64,000 nucleotides of DNA from an uncultured Gemmatimonadales bacterium (GCA_963798845.1 CAWCUS010000005.1:320001-384000), one strand, 5' to 3'; positions 36,472-44,990 are shown, numbered from the stretch's first letter. Numbers and translations: made by a program. Notes: generated from the letters alone by a model not told the origin.

Positions 36472-38004
36472 ATGCCGCAGCCACATCGATCGTTCCCGAC
36501 CGTCCTCGCGCTGGCGGCGCTCCCGCTGTGGGCGTGCGACCACGAGGCCACCGCTCCGCGCGTTCCGCCCGACGTGGCCGGGGCGGTGGCCACGATCACC
36601 GCCGCCGACGTGGCCGGGCGGGTGGGGATCATCGCGGATGACAGCATGGGCGGGCGGAACACGCCGAGCCCGGGACTCGAGGCCACGGCGTCGTACATGG
36701 CGTCGGAGCTCGAGGCCATGGGGCTGGAAGCATCCGGCACCGGGTACATACAGCGCTACCCGTTCGCGTACCCGGTGCGGGACGACGCCAGCCTCCTGCT
36801 GGAGCTGGCCGTCGGGCAGACGCCGGCGCTGGAGGTCGGGCGCGACCTCGTGATGTTCGGGGCGGCGCCGGAGCGCGGCGACACGGTGGGCCGGATCGTC
36901 TGGGGCGGCCCCGCGTCGGACCCGGAGGCGCCGGGCCGGCTCGGCGTGCCTCTGGCCGGCCGGGTCGTGCTGTACGACCTGCCCGTGTCCCGGTACGACC
37001 TGGCCGCGGTCCTGGCGACGACCGGCGCGCAGCAGGCGGCGATCGAGGGCGACGCGGCGGCGATCGGCTTCGTGGTGGGTCCCGGGTTCGGCGAGCAGGA
37101 GATGGCCGCCGCGCTCGCGCGCAGTCCCCGCCACGAGCGGTGGATCCCGGAGTTCTGGATCCGGCAGCCTGCGGCGGAGGCGCTGCTCTCGGCCGCGGGA
37201 GCCGACCTGGCGTCCCTCCGGTCGGGTGCGCCGCGGGTCCTGGACGACTCCCTGCGCGTGCGCGCGCTCCTGGCGGAGGCGACGGCGCTGGCGCCCAACG
37301 TGGTGGCCGTGCTGCCCGGCTCCGATCCGTCGCTGCGCGCCGAGTACGTGGTCGTGTCGGCCCACTACGACCACCTCGGGATCGGGTTGGCGGACGCGAC
37401 CGGGGACTCGATCTACAACGGCGCCGACGACAACGGGTCCGGGACCACCGCCGTGCTCGAGGTCGCGGAAGCGATGGCGTCGCTGGAGACCCCGCCCGCC
37501 CGGTCACTCCTCTTCCTCCTGGTGAGCGGCGAGGAGCGCGGGCTCATCGGGTCCTCGTACTTCGCCCGGCACCCGACCGTGCCGCTGTCGAGCATCGTCG
37601 CCGACATCAACCTGGACATGGTCGGGCGCAACGATCCGGCCGAGGTGATCGGCGTGGGCAGCGAGTACACCAGCCTCGGCGACCTCGCCACTTCGCTCGC
37701 CCGCGACACCGACGCCCTGGGGCTCAGCGTCCTCCCCGACCTCGCGCCCGACGAGCACCTGTTCTTCCGCAGCGACCAGCTCGTGTTCGCCTGCCGCGAA
37801 ATCCCCTCCCTCTTCTTCACCGACGGGGGCCACGCCGACTACCACACCGTGAGCGACGAGGTGGACAGGCTCGACACCGACAAGATCGCCCGCGTCGCGA
37901 GGCTGGCGTTCTACCTCGCCTACGACGTGGCGGACGCGAAGGACCCGCCGACGTGGACGTCCGCCGGGCGAGCGGCGCTGAGCGAGAACGTGAGGTGCCC
38001 GTGA
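36472..38004 (+). CDS. M28 family metallopeptidase lipoprotein
   Basis: Lipobox LWAC; motifs SAHYDH, NGADDNGSG, GEERGLIGS, NLDMVGR, RSD, DYHTVSD. Confidence 0.92.
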   Translation: MPQPHRSFPTVLALAALPLWACDHEATAPRVPPDVAGAVATITAADVAGRVGIIADDSMGGRNTPSPGLEATASYMASELEAMGLEASGTGYIQRYPFAYPVRDDASLLLELAVGQTPALEVGRDLVMFGAAPERGDTVGRIVWGGPASDPEAPGRLGVPLAGRVVLYDLPVSRYDLAAVLATTGAQQAAIEGDAAAIGFVVGPGFGEQEMAAALARSPRHERWIPEFWIRQPAAEALLSAAGADLASLRSGAPRVLDDSLRVRALLAEATALAPNVVAVLPGSDPSLRAEYVVVSAHYDHLGIGLADATGDSIYNGADDNGSGTTAVLEVAEAMASLETPPARSLLFLLVSGEERGLIGSSYFARHPTVPLSSIVADINLDMVGRNDPAEVIGVGSEYTSLGDLATSLARDTDALGLSVLPDLAPDEHLFFRSDQLVFACREIPSLFFTDGGHADYHTVSDEVDRLDTDKIARVARLAFYLAYDVADAKDPPTWTSAGRAALSENVRCP

Positions 38005-38580
38005 ACTGGAGCCGGAAGGAAGTCGAGCGAAGGTGCCTGGCGACCTCCGACGCGGCGAGGGTGCCGAGCCACGGGGTGGTGCTGGTGCGGGCGGTGGGGC
38101 AGTAAGGGCGACGCCACCAACCGTGGCACATCGACGGACTCAATGATGGGCGGCGGAGCAGGCGGAGGAATGGCGCGGCGGGACGCATCGGGAGGCGGGC
38201 GTCCAGCCACAACGCCGTGGCGGCGCACGGCAGGTCCCCCCGACGGGGGTCGATGCCGCTTCCGGCCTCGGCAACCGACCACTCGCTGCGGGCTCCGGGG
38301 TGAGTGGTCGCTCTGCGGCGGTGAGAGGCCCTGAATCGACCACTCGATCTCAGGCTGGTCGAACGAGTGGGCACTTTCAGGCCCCAGGGACCGCCAACCG
38401 ACCAATCGACCGCCGAGCTGCCGCGTGTGGTCAGGAAGCAACGCACGGCCGGCCCACGCGCCGCCGCGCCACGGGGCGGTGCGGGTGCGGGTCAGCCGTC
38501 CGCCATGGAGAGACGGACCTCGTTGACAAATGTTTCCACCTGAGGTAACGAGCGGCCGTCAGCACCGCAGTCTTGCGGCC

Positions 38581-38600
38581 TGTGTACAACCGTGCACACA
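38581..38600. promoter_or_regulatory. Probable autoregulatory operator/promoter of brnTA
   Basis: Imperfect palindrome TGTGTACAACCGTGCACA directly before the toxin start. Confidence 0.5.
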
Positions 38601-38605
38601 TTCAA

Positions 38606-38881
38606 GTGCATTAGGAGTGGGATCCGGCGAAGGCGACATCGAACCAGCAGAAGCACGGCGTTCGATTTGCGGACGCCATCGGCGTGTTCTCGGATGCCCG
38701 GGCGCTGGTGATGCGCGACTCGCGCCAGGACGACGAGCGGTACGTGGTCCTTGGCCTTCACGCGCTGGGGCGCCTCCTCGTAGTCGTCTACACGTGGCGC
38801 GGCCCGGACAGGATCCGCCTCATCTCCGCGCGCCCCGCCACGCGAACGGAAGCGCGGCAGTACGCGGGAGGAAGTCCGTGA
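38606..38881 (+). pseudogene. brnT: BrnT toxin with an in-frame TAG at codon 3
   Basis: GTG CAT TAG GAG TGG GAT: (V)H*EWDPAKATSNQQKHGVRFADA...ERYVVLG...LLVVVYTWR..RIRLISARPA. Confidence 0.8.
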
Positions 38882-39132
38882 ACAGAGAATACGACTTCAG
38901 CAGCACGCGCCGCGGCCCCATCAATGTGCCTCCGGCGGGCAAGACCCGGGTGACGATCCGGCTGGACAACGACGTCCTGGACTGGTTCCGCGACCAGGTC
39001 AATGCGGCGGGCGGGGGCAACTACCAGACGCTGATCAACGCGGCGCTCCGCGACTACATCGGAAGGGCCGAAGAGCCGCTCGAGGAGATGCTCCGGCGCG
39101 TGGTGCGCGAGGAGTTGGGTCGCAGCGCCTGA
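38878..39132 (+). CDS. brnA: BrnA antitoxin
   Basis: GTGA overlap with brnT; EYDFS...KTRVTIRLDNDVLDWFR...GNYQTLINAALR (RHH domain). Confidence 0.9.
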   Translation: MNREYDFSSTRRGPINVPPAGKTRVTIRLDNDVLDWFRDQVNAAGGGNYQTLINAALRDYIGRAEEPLEEMLRRVVREELGRSA

Positions 39133-39143
39133 GGCGATCCCGA

Positions 39144-39628
39144 ATGTGCTCCCGGGCGACGGCGCAACGGAAGGCGCGGAAAAAGAACCGGGCCGTGGGC
39201 CGGGCTCTCGTCGCGAAGGAACTCGCTCGTATCGTCTACCATGTCCTCTCGAAGCGGGAGGACTTCAACCATCGCTTCAAAGGCATCCCGCTCCAGCGGC
39301 GGAAAAAGCAGGAGTGGCCACGTCGGTCAAGCCCGGGCAGCTAACTGGATCGGCTTTCGCCGAGTACCGCCCCGTTTGATTGGGAAGACCGACGTCGAGC
39401 CGCCGGACGTATCTGGGACCGCTCCGCAGAGCGACCGCTGAAATGAGCAGCGGTGAGCCCGAAATGGTGTTTGGACGCCACTCCACGTCCGATTCGATAC
39501 CCACTCCGGCCCGGCCAGACCTGCCGTCGCTCGCGGAATCGAGAAGCGTCGCACGATCGAAAAGCGAATCAGAATCTCTGATTCCGCACAGATCATCGTG
39601 CTCCTTGACGAAGGACTTGTTAATGGTG
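39144..39628 (+). mobile_element. 5'-truncated IS110/IS1111-family element: transposase C-terminus plus 3' non-coding end, inserted in an attC site
   Basis: RKARKKNRAVGRALVAKELARIVYHVL resembles the IS110 C-terminal helix; 280-nt structured non-coding region; TTGACG near the right end; ends at the R'' box of the ClbS cassette attC. Confidence 0.7.
39345..39627 (+). ncRNA. Candidate bridge/seekRNA
   Basis: Lies downstream of the transposase remnant; stem-loops at 39434-39454, 39566-39584 and 39551-39601; CCGTTTG matches the attC flank and AATGGTG matches the IS end. Confidence 0.5.
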
Positions 39629-40159
39629 TTATCCGCTGTTGGCTCCGCTCTGCGCATCGCCTCGCCCGACGCTCCTGACCCACCGCTTCAGCACCTTGCA
39701 CGCAAAGCGGTAGTGGCTCGCCGTGTTCGCGCCAAGGTAGGTCACCAACGCGTTCGTTCCGGTCCAGCCAAACGTGCCGGGCTTCAGAAGCTCGTCCGTC
39801 GATGCCTGCCGAGCCAAGTCCAAGACTCTTGCATGCGAAGCCTCGAGTTCTCCCCACAGTTCATCGCTCAGGCGATCCCTATGCTTCTCCTGGATGTCCC
39901 GGTTCAACCTCGGCGTTTCATTCCACCTGTAGCCAGGGGCCGGCATCGCAGGAACCCGGCCATCAAGGCCGGCGCGATGCCACCCCAGGAAGAGCGTGTG
40001 CCATTCCGTCAGGTGTGCCAGGAGGTCGTTGACGGTCCAATCCTCACCCCACACCCCTGGTTCGGAGTACCTCCGGGGGATTCTCTCCAGACACTCCCGT
40101 AGCGTAGAAAACTGGTCTTCGATATCCCGGATCAACTGCTGCTTGGACGCGTATCTCAC
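39629..40159 (-). CDS. ClbS/DfsB (DUF1706) family four-helix-bundle protein, gene cassette 3
   Basis: Motifs DLLAHLTEW, PAPGYRWNE, NTASHY; stop codon lies within the attC R'' GCGGATAAC. Confidence 0.85.
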   Translation of the reverse strand: MRYASKQQLIRDIEDQFSTLRECLERIPRRYSEPGVWGEDWTVNDLLAHLTEWHTLFLGWHRAGLDGRVPAMPAPGYRWNETPRLNRDIQEKHRDRLSDELWGELEASHARVLDLARQASTDELLKPGTFGWTGTNALVTYLGANTASHYRFACKVLKRWVRSVGRGDAQSGANSG

Positions 40160-40203
40160 TGAGATCCCCTTTGATCACCCGACTGGCGGCCAAGGAGCCA
40201 ATT

Positions 40204-40358
40204 GCGGATAACGTCTCCAGGTTGGCGACCCGCCGCGCCGATACCTCTAGCACGCGATCACCTTCGAAACAGCGGCAGCCTCACCAGCTTCAACACGGTC
40301 GCGGCGGGTTCTCCGGAGCGGCCGCAGGCCGCGCAGGCGCCAACCGTTTGTTAACCGC
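40204..40358 (-). repeat. Integron attC site
   Basis: Minus strand GCGGTTAAC-AAACG-GTTGGCG...CGCCAAC-CTGGAGAC-GTTATCCGC; homologous to 40968-41122. Confidence 0.88.
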
Positions 40359-40385
40359 CGTGTTCTGCCCGCAGCCTGGCGGACG

Positions 40386-40682
40386 TCACCTCCGGGCCTG
40401 CCAACGCTTCGGATCGCGGCGGGAATGGAAAACGGAGAGTACCACGATCTCTTCCGCGCTCACTCTGAAGAGAATGGCATATGGGAATCGCCGAACAACG
40501 GCCCTCCGGACATCCCGATACAGAATGGGAAATCGGAGAGGATTCCGCTGGATCGCTGAGAAAGCCGCATCAATGACGCGGACGAATTCCGCTCCCAAGC
40601 CCAAGGAACGCTCCGAATACCACGCTGCGGCTTCCTCGAGTTCGGCGTCGGCCGCAGGGCGAACAACGAAGCGGCGGCTCAC
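40386..40682 (-). CDS. RelE/ParE family toxin (cassette 2)
   Basis: RPAADAELEEAAAWY...GLGAEF...RRAVVRRFPYAILF...VLSVFHSRRDP. Confidence 0.9.
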   Translation of the reverse strand: MSRRFVVRPAADAELEEAAAWYSERSLGLGAEFVRVIDAAFSAIQRNPLRFPILYRDVRRAVVRRFPYAILFRVSAEEIVVLSVFHSRRDPKRWQARR

Positions 40683-40903
40683 CCGTACTTCTTGTACAAC
40701 CGCTCCCGGACTTCCTCCCAGGGAAGAGCAGAATCCGGGTCCGCTTCATGTTCTGCCAGCCTACGGTCCAGTTCCGCCTTCTGGGCCTCAGTTAATGGAT
40801 AGGCGTCCGCGTCCGTAGCGATGCTGTCCCACAGGTCCTCCACCAACTGAATCCGCTCAGCGACCGACAGCTTGAGCAGTTCCTCGATTGGTACACTCGA
40901 CAT
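40679..40903 (-). CDS. Addiction-module antitoxin (TIGR02574-like) (cassette 2)
   Basis: LSVAERIQLVEDLWDSI...LTEAQKAELDRRL...PWEEV; GTGA overlap with the toxin. Confidence 0.9.
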   Translation of the reverse strand: MSSVPIEELLKLSVAERIQLVEDLWDSIATDADAYPLTEAQKAELDRRLAEHEADPDSALPWEEVRERLYKKYG

Positions 40904-40967
40904 CCGCAAGCTCCTTCCCTGAAGTCCCTTGCTCCTAATCTGCTACAGAAACGCCGAGTGGAACATG

Positions 40968-41122
40968 GCGGTTAACGTTTCCAGGTTGGCGACCCGCCCC
41001 GCCGAGGCCTCCAGCGCGAGATCACCTTCGAAACAACGCGAACCTCACCAGCACCAAGAAACTCGCGGCGGGTTCTCCGGAGCTCGCGAAGCGAGCGAAG
41101 GCGCCAACCGTTTGTTATCTGC
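40968..41122 (-). repeat. Integron attC site
   Basis: Minus strand GCAGATAAC-AAACG-GTTGGCG...CGCCAAC-CTGGAAAC-GTTAACCGC. Confidence 0.88.
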
Positions 41123-41149
41123 CGCTGGCCTCTTTCCCGATCCAGGCCT

Positions 41150-42069
41150 CTATTGCTCCGCCACCTGGAAGTAATCCGAATCAAGCCGCTTGATCTCGTA
41201 CTTCTCGACTCGGGCGACACCGACGTCGTGGTCGATCATCAAACCAGCCAGCGTTGCGCCGTCGACGAGGATGATCTTGTTGTCGATGTTCTCAGCGTAC
41301 TTTGTGGCTTCAGCGGAAAAGGACGAGCTGGTGATAAAGATCCCCTTCTTCGCTCGCACCCCTTGTAGTGCACCGGCAAACTTCTGGATCTCCGGGCGCC
41401 CTACGGTCCCCTCCCACCGCTTTGCCTGGATGTCAGATGACGTCCAGGCCCAGCCGTATCCTCCTTGATGATACCGTCAATCCCTCCGTCACCTGATTTC
41501 CCGACTGCTCGTCCTGCATCGGCCCTGGATCCGCCGTACCCCATCGCTACGAGCAGTTCAACAACCAGGCGCTCGAAGAATTCAGGGGGGCACTTCGCGA
41601 CTTCGTCGAGGATATCAGAGACCAGCTTCTTCCGGATCTCTGAATAGCCGTACTCCAGGTGCTCCTCAGGCGTCAGATCATCCGCGCCCGCCGGCACCTC
41701 CTTCGAACCGGTGCCGTTCTCGGATTTGCCAGAACGGAACTCGAGGTACTCCGGGTAACCCTTCAGCTGAGCCATACCGATCGGGCCAGGATGGTTCTGG
41801 AGCAGTACCCTGCCTCGTTCGGTAATCCGATAGACGGCGCGTTGCGGTGCCTCGATCAAGCCCGCCCCCTTCAGGTGACTCTTGGCCCAAGCCACTCTGT
41901 TGACAAAGACCGGTTGCTTTCCACTCGGAAGCAGCTCCGAACGCTCTTCGTCAGTGACCTCGAAGTGCTTCGCCATGGCCTCGAGAGTATCCTGATTCGG
42001 CCTCGGCGCTCCGTCAGAAAGGTGCTCCAGAAGGGGTCTCATCAAGGACTGGAAATCAGGAATCGGCAT
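41150..42069 (-). CDS. mrr: Mrr type IV restriction endonuclease (cassette 1), with two single-base insertions at 41434 and 41457
   Basis: MPIPDFQSLMRPLL, NRVAWAKSHL, FFERLVVELL.AMGYG, GDGGIDG. Removing the two bases restores EDRLGLDVIYIQAKRW, continuing to KGIFITSSSFS. Confidence 0.88.
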
Positions 42070-42105
42070 ATCTCATCTCATAGACTCTTATGTTGTTGGC
42101 CAGTG

Positions 42106-42183
42106 GCAGATAACTACTTGTTCCCGAACTCACGGTCGGCAATATCACACCCGCGCGTTGTATTCCCGAACCTTATGTTCGCT
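42106..42183 (-). other. attI-like integron recombination site
   Basis: First cassette starts at G/TTATCTGC. The preceding sequence is not attC-like and has direct repeats GTTCGGGAA x2, ending ...GGGAACAAGTA-GTT. Confidence 0.6.
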
Positions 42184-44990
42184 AATCCCCCACCAGCCCC
42201 CCGAACACCACCCCGAACGTCCCCCAGGTCTGGCCGCGGTGCTGGGGGCGGAATCCGATGAGCACCACGCGTCCCTTGCCGTGCTCGACGCTCACCATGG
42301 CGGCTTTCTCGGAGAGGACGTCCTCGCCGATGAGCCAGCCGCTCTGGAGGATGTTCTCCTGGTCGGTGCCCTCGCCCGCTTCGGGGAAGGTGATGACGCG
42401 GTGGACGCGCTCGCTGTGGGCGCCGGGGACGGTCTCGTACGCGCGGCTGTCGCCGGTGAAGAGGACGAGGGCGCGGGCGGGCATGCCGTAGACGAGGGGG
42501 TCGGTTGTGTCCACGTCGACGCGCAGCATGGAGCCGGGGCACCAGAACTCCTTCGATGACAGGCCGTCGTTCACGACCCGGACGGGGAGGTTGAAGCCGT
42601 CAATGGCGAGGTCGCCGGCCTGGCCGAAGGTCATGAGGGTGCCGCCGTCGCGGACGAACTGCTCGAGGGCCTTCACCCCCTCGTCGCCGAAGCCGCTCCG
42701 GTACTCGGGCGGCGTGTTCTCCAGGTAGCGGGCGTAGCGGCCGGCGAGCTGGCCGGGCGCCGAGCCCGGGCCCTTCATCATCACCGGGTTGTCCGACGGC
42801 AGGACGATGACGTCGAAATCCTTGATCAGGCTGCCCTTCCTGATCCGCGCGTCGTCCAGCCCCTGGTACGGGAAGGCGAACCGCTCCAGCACCAGCCGCG
42901 TCCACCCCTCGTCCATGTTCCCGCCGTAATACCGGTGGTACAGCCCGATCCGCTGCCGCTCCACGGGCGAGGTGGAAGCGGGCTCGACGTCCAGCGCCTC
43001 GAACGAGACGTGCGTTTCCGCCGCGACCGCACGCAGCGCCGCGCCGTCGGCGTTGCCCGGAATCAGGAAGTCCCCGGTGTTGAAAAGTGTTCCTTCGTGC
43101 CCTTCGTTCCCTTCGAGCTCTTCGTGTCGACTGCTGTTCGAAGCTTCTGCGCCCGCGAACCCAGCCCGCACCCGCCGAACCTGAACGCCCCGGTCAAGGA
43201 GCCTGTTCACCGCCAGGTACGCCGCGTTCTCCCGCCCGTCGAGCCGATAGCCGTAAGAGCCCGCGGTGACCGATCCGGCTGGCTCGATCCCGGTGGTGAC
43301 GTAAGGAAGCCGCTCCACGACGCGGACCTCGAAGTCGGGATGGATCACGCTGGTGCCCACGGTGACCGGGGTCCCGACGGGGACCGCTTCCACCCCCATG
43401 AACTCCGCCATGTCGTGCGTCGCCAGGTCGTATGGCCGGATGGGGCTGCCATCGCGGTCCCGGGTGAACGCGTTGTCCGGGTAGAACGTGCGCCCCAGGA
43501 GCCAGCGGACCAGCCCGCGCTTGGGCTGCGCCATGGAGACCACCCAGGAGCCGCCGCCGTAGACGCGGCCTTCGTGGACGAAGTCGGACGTCGTCCGGCG
43601 GACCTCGACGCCCTGCTGGAGCAGCTTGTTGACCATCTCGACGGCGGTGAGGCGGTCGTGCTGGTCGGCGGGGATGATGAAGGCGGCGACGGGCCCGGTG
43701 GGCCCGTTGTGGACGGGGGCGGCGGCGTCGCCCCGCTCGACCTGGCGGCGGGCCTTGAGGTAGTGGTTCTCGAGGACGGTGCGGCGGTTCTTCGCCGCCA
43801 TGTCGAGGAGGGCGAGCGACGCGATCTTCTGCATGTCCACGATGTCGCGCACGGTCCACCAGCCGCCCGGCCACGGGTCGGGGAACGTGTTCTGGGCGCG
43901 GTACTCCGGGATGCCGTGCTCGGGGTCGGCCTCGAGCTGGTCCGGCTGGACGAAGATCGGCCACGCCAGGTTGGCGCTGGCGGACTCGGTGAGCATGCCG
44001 GCGATGTTGTGGAAGGGCGTGATCCAGTGGAAGCCGAAGTGGCCCCAGCCGCCGTAGATGGCTGCGTTGGCGACGCCGCTCTTGCCGGCCGACTCCTCGT
44101 CGGCGGCGATGCGGGCGCCCCACCAGCTCATCTCGCGCCAGACCAGCGGGTCACCGTCGGGGCGGATCGGCTCGGCGTACGGCGGCACGTACATGCGCGG
44201 GCCGTACGCGCCCATCTGGTGGTGGTCCACGAACGCTTCGGGGACCCAGTCGCGGAACAGGATCTCGCCCGTCCACACGCTCTCGGCCGTGTTCTGCTGG
44301 AACGCGTCCCGGTTGTTGTCGTGGCCGATGTAGGGGTGGTAGAGCCACGGCAGGCTGGCGCCCTGCCACTCCGTCCCCGCCGTCTTCCGCACCCAGTCCG
44401 CGACCATGGTGGTGCCGTCCGGGTTGAGCGACGGGAACAGGATGGCCACGTCCTGGTCCAGGATCCGGCGCATGGCGTCGTCGTCGCGGGTGGCCATGTC
44501 ATGGACCAGCTCCGCGGCGGTCTGCGTGGCCGCCACCTCCGTGGCGTGGAGGCCGTAGCTCTGGGCGACGATGGCCCGGCCGTTCTCGATGGCGTTCGCG
44601 ATCTCCGCGTCCGAGTGGCCCCGGGGGTCGGCGAGGACCAGGTTGAGCTGCCGCAGCTCCTCCAGCCGCGCCAGGTTCTCCGGCGACGAGACGAAGAGGA
44701 CGACGAACGGCTTCCCCAGCGTGCTCGGGCCCATCTCCCTCAGCATCACCCGCGGGCTGCGCTCGGCGACGAGGCGGTAGTAGGCGACGAGCTGGTCCCA
44801 GTCGGCGAGGCGGCCGTCGGCGCCCATGCGGAAGCCGAAGTGCTCCTCCGGCGACGGGATGGCGGCGGCTTGCGGGGCCTGGCGTCGCGGGGGGCGAGGG
44901 CTCCTGGGCGAGCGCGGGGGTGCCGAACGCCTGGACGAGGGTGACCACTGCGAGCACGAAAGCGGTGGACGCGAAGCGGGGGCGTCGCAT
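42182..44990 (-). CDS. M14 family zinc carboxypeptidase-like secreted protein, +1 frameshift near 44880-44895
   Basis: ATG 44990 with signal peptide in one frame; motifs LHATE, NPDG, HDNNRD, DHHQMG, DEGWTR in the next frame. Confidence 0.85.

Follow-up and report, generated by a model that had tools for sequence, protein, structure and literature searches.

The DNA analysed here (the window) is a stretch of 64,000 nt from an uncultured Gemmatimonadales bacterium (GCA_963798845.1 CAWCUS010000005.1:320001-384000), with positions counted from its first letter. Its minus strand carries an integron array of three cassettes, comprised of a Mrr-type gene (42069-41401), an antitoxin+ParE pair (40909-40386), and a DUF1706/DinB-like gene (40159-39629). 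Two of the cassette recombination sites (attC) are intact, and the last one is interrupted by foreign DNA. We read this DNA, at 39166-39626, as the decayed 3' part of an insertion sequence (IS) of the IS1111 group, IS110 family, which includes a guide-RNA gene, and estimate the probability of this reading at about 0.9. It explains why the array ends at this place and why its last attC is dead.

Cassette array and the interrupted attC

Three attC sites or parts of sites are associated with the array:

41121-40965, minus strand: intact attC, 3' of the Mrr-type cassette, an unoccupied target
40357-40200, minus strand: intact attC, 3' of the antitoxin+ParE cassette, an unoccupied target
39637-39628, minus strand: leftover of the interrupted attC of the DUF1706 cassette (first box only, GCGGATAAC), adjoined by foreign DNA

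On the plus strand, both intact attCs end as GGCGCCAACCGTT-TG-TTA (GCGG(A/T)TAACAAACGGTTGG in the minus-strand reading), and the junction of the element with the interrupted attC reads TTAATGG-TG-TTATCCGC. The attC motif GGCGCCAACCGTTTGTTA is found twice in the window, with 0.04 occurrences expected. The leftover box, on the minus strand at 39637-39629, is as described in an earlier sequence-only reading of this DNA. The stop codon of the DUF1706 gene (39629-39631) falls within this first attC box (GGATAAC), 1-3 nt from the IS junction, and the gene was left intact by the insertion.

Elsewhere in the same genome, nine attCs of the window type follow an integrase-like gene on another contig (C2:530968-531777), which matches TIGR02249 in two pieces of 110 and 94 bits, under the 265-bit cut-off. 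The sequence CCGTT-TG is present in 10 of the 11 attCs of this genome, i.e. these nine and the two in the window. The nine belong to the region C2:530968-552500 (L152, L153, L158, and L159), in which there are at least nine attCs of the GGCGCCAACCGTT-TG-TTA type. Degenerate footprints of IS1111-attC elements at the termini of arrays were reportedly described by Tetu and Holmes in 2008.

Identity and extent of the remnant

The part of the element that still codes for protein is the following:

39166-39344, plus strand: remnant of the transposase gene (tnp), last 58 codons and stop codon TAA (39342-39344), delimited by identity to protein P0001 and by contigs from metagenome runs X1 and X2

The 66-aa product of an open reading frame (ORF) at 39144-39344 shares 94% identity with the C-terminal 56-58 residues of P0001, a protein of 338 aa. 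A search limited to longer proteins gave 32 of 87 candidates at E <= 0.001, nearly all with PF01548 and PF02371. PF01548, PF02371, and NCBIfam NF033542 ("IS110 family RNA-guided transposase") are matched by P0001 as well as by L017, the closest genomic relative (86% identity to P0001). For the 66-aa peptide itself, Pfam gives no match, because the remnant begins behind the last domain: it aligns from about residue 281-283 of P0001, and Transposase_20 ends at residue 279 of 338. The peptide is thus the C-terminal tail of an IS110-family transposase, in agreement with the IS110/IS1111 assignment of the sequence-only reading. Catalytic domains and the left end are gone from this copy, which is not a working family member. 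From the stop codon (39344) to the last base of the element (39626), 282 nt of non-coding DNA remain.

To the left, the limit of the element was determined by comparing the region with contigs of four metagenome runs. One X1 contig, 742 nt long, differs from 39166-39631 by one substituted letter and two gaps of 1 nt. Left of 39166, it reads on as tnp coding sequence (...YNPEIRSWY), located in P0001 just upstream of ERKARKKNR. X2 contigs break at the same base and also extend leftward as tnp coding sequence. Since contigs diverge at 39166, the deletion breakpoint is placed at 39165/39166, and 39144-39165 is not IS DNA. The start at 39144 assumed before has to be moved accordingly: the ATG at that position opens a chimeric ORF, in which the first 7 codons do not derive from the IS. 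No contig of the four runs bridges the 39165/39166 junction of the window, which is neither confirmed nor contradicted there. Right of 39631, the 742-nt contig has a different flank (GTTA, then AGTGACG), indicating that the X1 copy sits in another site.

Contigs of runs X1, X2, and X3 have one extra G behind 39590 with respect to the window, and X1 is also one base short at 39197. A contig of run X4 joins an attC-like stretch, ending at 41103 (window 41064-41103), to internal tnp coding sequence (...AAVRAIQ), which suggests that an attC elsewhere in the community holds a further copy with a different truncation. Next to the deletion junction, CCCGAATGTG (39141-39150) is a possible pseudo-site similar to CCCGAAATGGTG; as this is a single case, the similarity is considered a coincidence.

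Within its own genome (96.28% complete, 6 contigs), the stretch has no second copy, and neither has the RNA motif described below. No PF02371 match was found anywhere in the assembly, so there is no IS110 transposase elsewhere in it.

Ends, junctions, and core

The right end of the element retains three features:

39605-39610, plus strand: -35-like TTGACG, 16 nt before the core TG; 22 nt from the last base in relatives
39613-39621, plus strand: right subterminal inverted repeat, GGACTTGTT; its reverse complement AACAAGTCC is in the left end of the X1 copy
39622-39628, plus strand: right end AATGG (39622-39626) and core TG (39627-39628), the core G being the G of the attC GTT box

The TTGACG box and its 16-nt distance from the core had been reported correctly. 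Its -10 partner would lie in the missing left end, judging from left ends of other copies, and the putative promoter formed on circularisation, as read from these sequences, would consist of TTGACG, 17 nt, and the core G followed by ATCTT of the X1/L017 left end. No promoter-like site was found in the present context (38450-39700).

The missing left end can be seen in a second X1 contig. It matches the attC at 40210-40350 (13 other letters) and after the core G (40350) continues as ATCTTACCAACAAGTCCCC. The left end in this contig (ATCTTACCAACAAGTCC) consists of ATCTTACC, which is also the start of the left end in L017, followed by AACAAGTCC, the exact reverse complement of GGACTTGTT; L017 has the same layout of repeats. 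An attC of this type is therefore occupied at CCGTT-TG, which bears out the proposal of an attC-targeted insertion at CCGTTTG-TTA. Subterminal inverted repeats of 9-10 bp were observed in L017, L033, L070, and L108, and left ends of relatives lie ~85-100 nt before the ATG.

Among the relatives are 13 copies with identical ends in attCs of one Rhodothermales metagenome-assembled genome (MAG), where the element lies between ...GCGCT TG and TTA. Empty attCs of this MAG read ...CAACATGCGCT-TG-TTA, and in the same loci ...GCAACATGCGCT TG TTAYRC. Occupied and empty attCs differ only by the element, so the flank belongs to the target and insertion is not accompanied by target duplication. Among parsed relatives, right junctions continue with GTT (attC R' box) in 81 of 84. 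Insertion is specific for this site and has a single orientation.

Two minor features of the right side can be added. In 21 of 84 rows (2 of them parse errors), the first core base at the right junction is not that of the guides, elements programmed for TG having CG, GG, or AG there. The deviation may show which strand and side is the first to be exchanged, or that the target needs only the G. A terminator-like hairpin with a T-rich tail (39566-39586, minus strand) is situated in the right end of the IS, oriented towards the DUF1706 cassette; as there are 2 such sites with 1.1 expected, it may be a matter of chance.

Candidate guide segments

The region around and behind the tnp stop codon contains the following segments, named by terms used for bridge RNAs:

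39337-39345, plus strand: right target guide (RTG) GCAGCTAAC, overlapping the tnp stop codon; complementary to the attC box and flank, top strand (GTTAnCnGC; GTTRRRY box)
39346-39369, plus strand: hairpin H1 between RTG and the left target guide, predicted in the window RNA fold; a hairpin is at the same place in relatives
39372-39378, plus strand: left target guide (LTG) CCGTT and core TG, identical to the attC left flank and core, top strand
39379-39387, plus strand: motif ATTGGGAAG, adjoining the LTG core on its 3' side; unchanged among aligned relatives (21 of 21)
39409-39419, plus strand: conserved motif GTATCTGGGAC; its GGG (39415-39417) is predicted to pair with CCC (39458-39460) in a stem enclosing two variable hairpins
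39463-39469, plus strand: left donor guide (LDG) AATGG and core TG, identical to the right end and core; the identity continues through TT (39470-39471)
39471-39492, plus strand: hairpin GGACG...CGTCC after the donor guide, with weak family support (mean z -1.05)

Repeated matches between this region and the attCs or the right end had been listed before, all at correct coordinates: CCGTTTG at 39372-39378, 40344-40350, and 41108-41114, and AATGGTGTT at 39463-39471 and 39622-39630. The earlier remark that a right-hand target guide could not be found does not stand, as the RTG at 39337-39345 takes this role, its sequence varying together with the right flank among relatives. In the window, 7 of its 9 positions agree with the right flank present at the element, 8 of 9 with the attC at 41114, and 7 of 9 with the attC at 40350; against right flanks of attCs in its own genome, 5-8 of 9 positions match.

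In principle, the two matches in the window could be due to chance, the region being decaying 3' IS DNA that has no guide function. They are just 7-9 nt long, and CCGTTTG alone is not rare (4 in the window, 5.06 expected), so its weight rests on the comparison with relatives. For AATGGTGTT the situation is different, since on both strands of the 64-kb window it is present only at its two positions, with 0.03 occurrences expected, and 0 of 100 shuffles reach 2. Furthermore, the position of both segments within the conserved layout is constant, and among relatives their sequence varies in step with flank, end, and core, as presented below. Chance is contradicted by this comparison, and its probability is close to negligible.

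Comparison among relatives

In two scans for relatives, genomes contributed 53 loci, and metagenomes 80 of 252. Genomes are labelled as Gemmatimonadota, Gemmatimonadales, Rhodothermales, Rubricoccaceae, and a few others. Regular-expression anchors parsed 95 of 149 sources (148 loci and the window), and 13 of the parsed rows are the copies from the single Rhodothermales MAG. Anchors were used for element ends because an exact-seed search for inverted repeats gave mostly false pairs.

The parsed elements share a common layout. A left flank (at least 5 nt) and the 2-nt core precede the left end AT.TT.CC with its inverted repeat, followed by tnp. Behind it are a 9-mer ending in AAC over the stop codon, a hairpin of free sequence, and 5 variable nt with core and ATTGGGAAG. 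The middle part contains (C)GTATCTGGGAC, its GGG pairing a later CCC around one or two variable hairpins. The donor part is formed by 5-6 variable nt, core, and T(T/G/A)TGG, and then a stem. At the 3' end, TTGAC/TTGCG lies exactly 22 nt before the last base, followed by the inverted repeat, the last 5-6 nt, core, and right flank. The RTG is located 5' of the LTG in all 84 rows that have an RTG.

The LDG agrees clearly with the right end. Their last 5 nt are the same in 80 of 84 rows, two rows share 4 of 5, and the remaining two are parse errors (L068 and L089). With one row per guide class, identity is observed in 50 of 54, in 7 states: AATGG, TAAGC, ATGGG, TTGGG, AAAGG, AAGGG, and CATGG. Over 6 nt, the mean is 5.18 (84 rows), compared with 3.78 in shuffled pairings, of which 0 of 10,000 reach this value. 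The proposal that AATGGTG is a donor guide is supported in this way.

For the LTG, 5 nt were compared with the left flank in 58 rows, of which 31 agree at 5/5, 14 at 4/5, 9 at 3/5, and 4 at 2/5. The mean of 4.24 is not reached in 10,000 shuffled pairings (2.46), in agreement with the role of CCGTTTG as a target guide. Taking one row per class (33), the distribution is 17, 6, 7, and 3, respectively.

Agreement of the RTG with the right flank extends over 9 nt at 9/9 in 5, 8/9 in 17, 7/9 in 33, and 6/9 in 20 of the 84 rows, and is lower in 9. Its variable 6 nt have a mean of 3.80, and shuffled pairings 2.93 (0 of 10,000 reach). Telling pairs of RTG and flank are GTAGAAC/GTTCTAC, GCAGAAC/GTTCTGC, GCCTAAC/GTTAGGC, and GTGAAC/GTTCAC.

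Cores of LTG and LDG are identical in 94 of 95 rows (TG in 63, GG in 31), and the core at the left junction is that of the guides in all 58 rows. All three candidate guides, as well as the core, thus covary with flanks and ends at the sequence level. Together with the presence of CCGTT-TG in nearly all attCs of the genome, this supports the suggestion of a bridge RNA programmed for the attC family of this lineage, and the guide set is tuned to its attC dialect.

Identity between the LTG and the occupied left junction can extend well beyond 7 nt. It comprises 12 nt (CATGCGCTTGAT) in 13 copies (L033-L043, L056, L060, and L067 listed), and 12 nt with a 1-nt slip (CTTCACGGCCTT) in L075. The impression is that junctions have at times been copied into guides.

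In Rubricoccaceae-type relatives (L018-L025, L032, L053, L054, L077, and others), the RTG has no in-frame stop (e.g. CAGCAGAAC). Their tnp ORF continues through RTG, hairpin, and LTG and ends at GGGAAGCGAGTAG, giving an overlap of coding sequence and predicted guide RNA of ~60 nt. As the RTG is situated within the last tnp codons and the stop codon, retargeting would rewrite the C-terminus of the protein.

Predicted RNA structure

The best-supported helix is the hairpin between RTG and LTG. In 76 unique segments of unrelated sequence, its mean z is -2.38, and 79% are below -1. The stem closed by GGG/CCC never varies; RNAalifold pairs it in 21, 21, and 19 of 21 sequences.

A number of results weigh against a guide-RNA gene in this place. 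The window RNA folds no better than its shuffled versions (z -0.74; 43 of 200 shuffles as good). The predicted unpaired probability is 0.67 for RTG, 0.47 for LDG, and 0.41 for LTG, compared with 0.38 overall, and a clear increase is confined to RTG. From 21 sequences aligned by MAFFT, RNAalifold gives 7 pairs only, none with a compensatory change; the number is low because the variable hairpins do not align. An Rfam scan of 38000-42500 returned no match at E <= 1, and none of the sequencing runs containing the stretch is listed as RNA. The comparison of relatives did not yield a convincing right donor guide (RDG). One subgroup has a weak LTG match, with GCATT facing CGCTT, CGTTT, or CGATT (2-3 of 5), and in L017, which among full-length relatives sharing the LTG is the closest, the insertion site is ACGTG (3 of 5). 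Short contigs and divergent anchors were dropped before counting. Shuffled pairings ignore relatedness and overstate significance, and the number of distinct covarying states is a sounder measure.

With regard to folding, the sequence-only reading had named matches buried in stems and not conserved among homologues as a point that would speak against guides. They are conserved, and single-sequence folding indicates neither that the guides are buried nor that they are free.

Two candidates for an RDG were discarded. AUC before GGGAC does not covary with position 3 of the left end, and the invariant AUUGGGAAG does not covary with the left end. In IS621, handshake guides adjoin RTG and RDG. Pairing of this type could be suspected here, since LTG and LDG remain identical to the product junction for 2 nt (AT and TT) beyond the core; as these bases never vary, it is not claimed.

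The internal segments that copy the flank and the right end may act as DNA, for instance as extra transposase-binding sites or by gene conversion with the ends, and not as RNA guides. Covariation in the form of sequence identity cannot tell RNA from DNA, the identity of up to 12 nt between LTG and left junction in the Rhodothermales copies and in L075 looks like copying, and single-sequence folds are weak. What points to a structured single strand is the hairpin between RTG and LTG, maintained among unrelated sequences. In addition, the RTG is complementary and not identical to the target, as expected for pairing with the other strand, and RNA of IS1111 elements has been purified with the transposase and reprogrammed (PMC11187229). 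We consider a role as DNA very unlikely.

History and present state of the element

Under the interpretation as an RNA-guided IS, the RNA of the element itself would have directed its insertion into the terminal attC of the three-cassette array, between the attC L-type box and the GTT box, at the core TG and without duplication. The left end, ~1 kb of tnp, and the remainder of the attC would have been lost later in a deletion that joined 39166 to the DNA just behind the brnTA operon. What is left is the tail of the transposase, a complete predicted seekRNA/bridge RNA gene, and the right end with -35 box and subterminal repeat. In intact relatives, the RNA would be read from the 3' non-coding region, and the DEDD/serine recombinase would then exchange strands at the core. 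RNA as the agent, its binding to the recombinase, and the chemistry are here assumed by analogy with published work on ISKpn4, ISPst6, ISEc11, and IS621.

This copy cannot move, because the left end and transposase are missing and no IS110 transposase exists elsewhere in the assembly. The genes brnT and brnA (38684-39132) are upstream on the same strand and end 34 nt before the remnant. No terminator-like site is present between them and the remnant on that strand, so the RNA could still be made by read-through, as a prediction.

In this respect, the remnant might be an orphan RNA gene still in use, read through as the 3' tail of the brnTA operon, whose RNA loads the recombinase of incoming near-identical copies or titrates it as a decoy. 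The RNA gene is complete, and its close position behind brnTA would allow transcription. Contigs with 0-1 letters different that extend into tnp exist in runs X1 and X2, 10 perfect CCGTT-TG targets are present in the assembly, and action of the RNA in trans has been published (PMC11187229). If so, a dead IS at the array terminus would shape where and whether new copies land in attCs of its own genome. On the other hand, the assembly, at its completeness of 96.28%, has no transposase gene, there is no sign of selection, the region differs by 1 nt at 39590 from contigs of three runs, and these contigs may come from other organisms. Continued use of the RNA is regarded as very unlikely.

Comparison with described elements

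Elements of the IS1111 group produce a seekRNA from the region downstream of tnp, and ISKpn4, ISPst6, and ISPa25 have one end of attC sites as their target, as described by Siddiquee et al. 2024 (PMC11187229). In their seekRNAs, the top-strand complement is 5' of the bottom-strand match; sizes, measured from the stop codon, peak at 82-86 nt, with a long form of 148-151 nt, and the RNA can be purified with the transposase, reprogrammed, and can act in trans (same source). The element in the window shares with these three the IS1111-type affiliation, the fixed place at one end of attC, the RNA region downstream of tnp, and the order of RTG (39337-39345) before LTG (39372-39378). By analogy, the published sizes would fit the segments from RTG to GGGAC and from RTG to behind LDG.

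In contrast to ISKpn4, ISPst6, and ISPa25, the copy studied here is truncated, and its transposase clade is distant from plasmid-borne relatives. A tblastn search with P0001 in 72,556 plasmid records gave a best identity of ~33% over 1429 matching records, and no DNA similarity was detected in this plasmid collection (matches are noise, E ~6). Transposases of the IS1111-attC group (ISPst6, ISKpn4, ISPa21, and ISPa25) are 46-89% identical among themselves (PMC11187229, identity table). The attC targeting observed here may represent a separate lineage with the same habit.

The terms LTG, RTG, LDG, and RDG were defined by Durrant et al. 2024 (PMC11208160), in whose text bridge RNAs of IS1111 are placed in the right end. 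Likeness to the IS621 bridge RNA, as presented in that report and by Hiraizumi et al. 2024 (PMC11208158), includes guides identical to left target with core and to left donor with core, a guide complementary to the right target, one two-base core in both loops, and a single RNA for target and donor. Differences from IS621 are the position of the predicted RNA in the right and not in the left end, the reversed order of guides in the target loop (RTG before LTG) with a hairpin between them, and a core that is TG or GG instead of CT, with RTG covering only its second base. Moreover, no right donor guide was identified here, and long subterminal inverted repeats are present.

With ISEc11, a member of the IS1111 family, the element shares a right-end -35 box that would meet a left-end -10 box on circle formation (here read from sequence only), the lack of target duplication, and a left end that extends 7-8 nt beyond the inverted repeat. 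ISEc11 differs in targeting a short linear sequence and not attC. For ISEc11, a copy devoid of its non-coding region was shown to move again when this region was provided in trans as RNA.

Since it fits published features of seekRNA/bridge RNA elements, the element belongs to a kind already known; new here is a decayed member of the published attC-targeting IS1111/seekRNA elements, and no new kind of biology is opened. Its relatives appear to form a large environmental clade (Gemmatimonadota, Rhodothermales/Rubricoccaceae, and others), all predicted to be attC-targeting RNA-guided recombinases. Natural reprogramming of their guides, of their cores (TG or GG), and of their ends has occurred on many occasions, providing a ready-made table of working guides, targets, and donors for an IS1111-type system. 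In this way, one mobile element tracks the attC dialect of the integron in each host.

Further observations on the array

No integrase is present near the three-site cluster in the window. At the start of contig C2, a second integron-integrase-like match (C2:1322-2267; L150 and L151) consists of 197 and 216 bits in two overlapping frames, which may be due to a frameshift or to an assembly edge. The Mrr-type cassette (41150-42069, minus strand) contains a 222-aa ORF (Mrr_N and the start of Mrr_cat) and, downstream on the same strand, a 69-aa ORF; its gene is probably a frameshifted pseudogene. Upstream of this cassette, GCAGATAAC at 42106-42114 has no further attC beside it and is the reverse complement of the GTTATCTGC box of the attC at 41114; this site is probably the first cassette boundary of the array.

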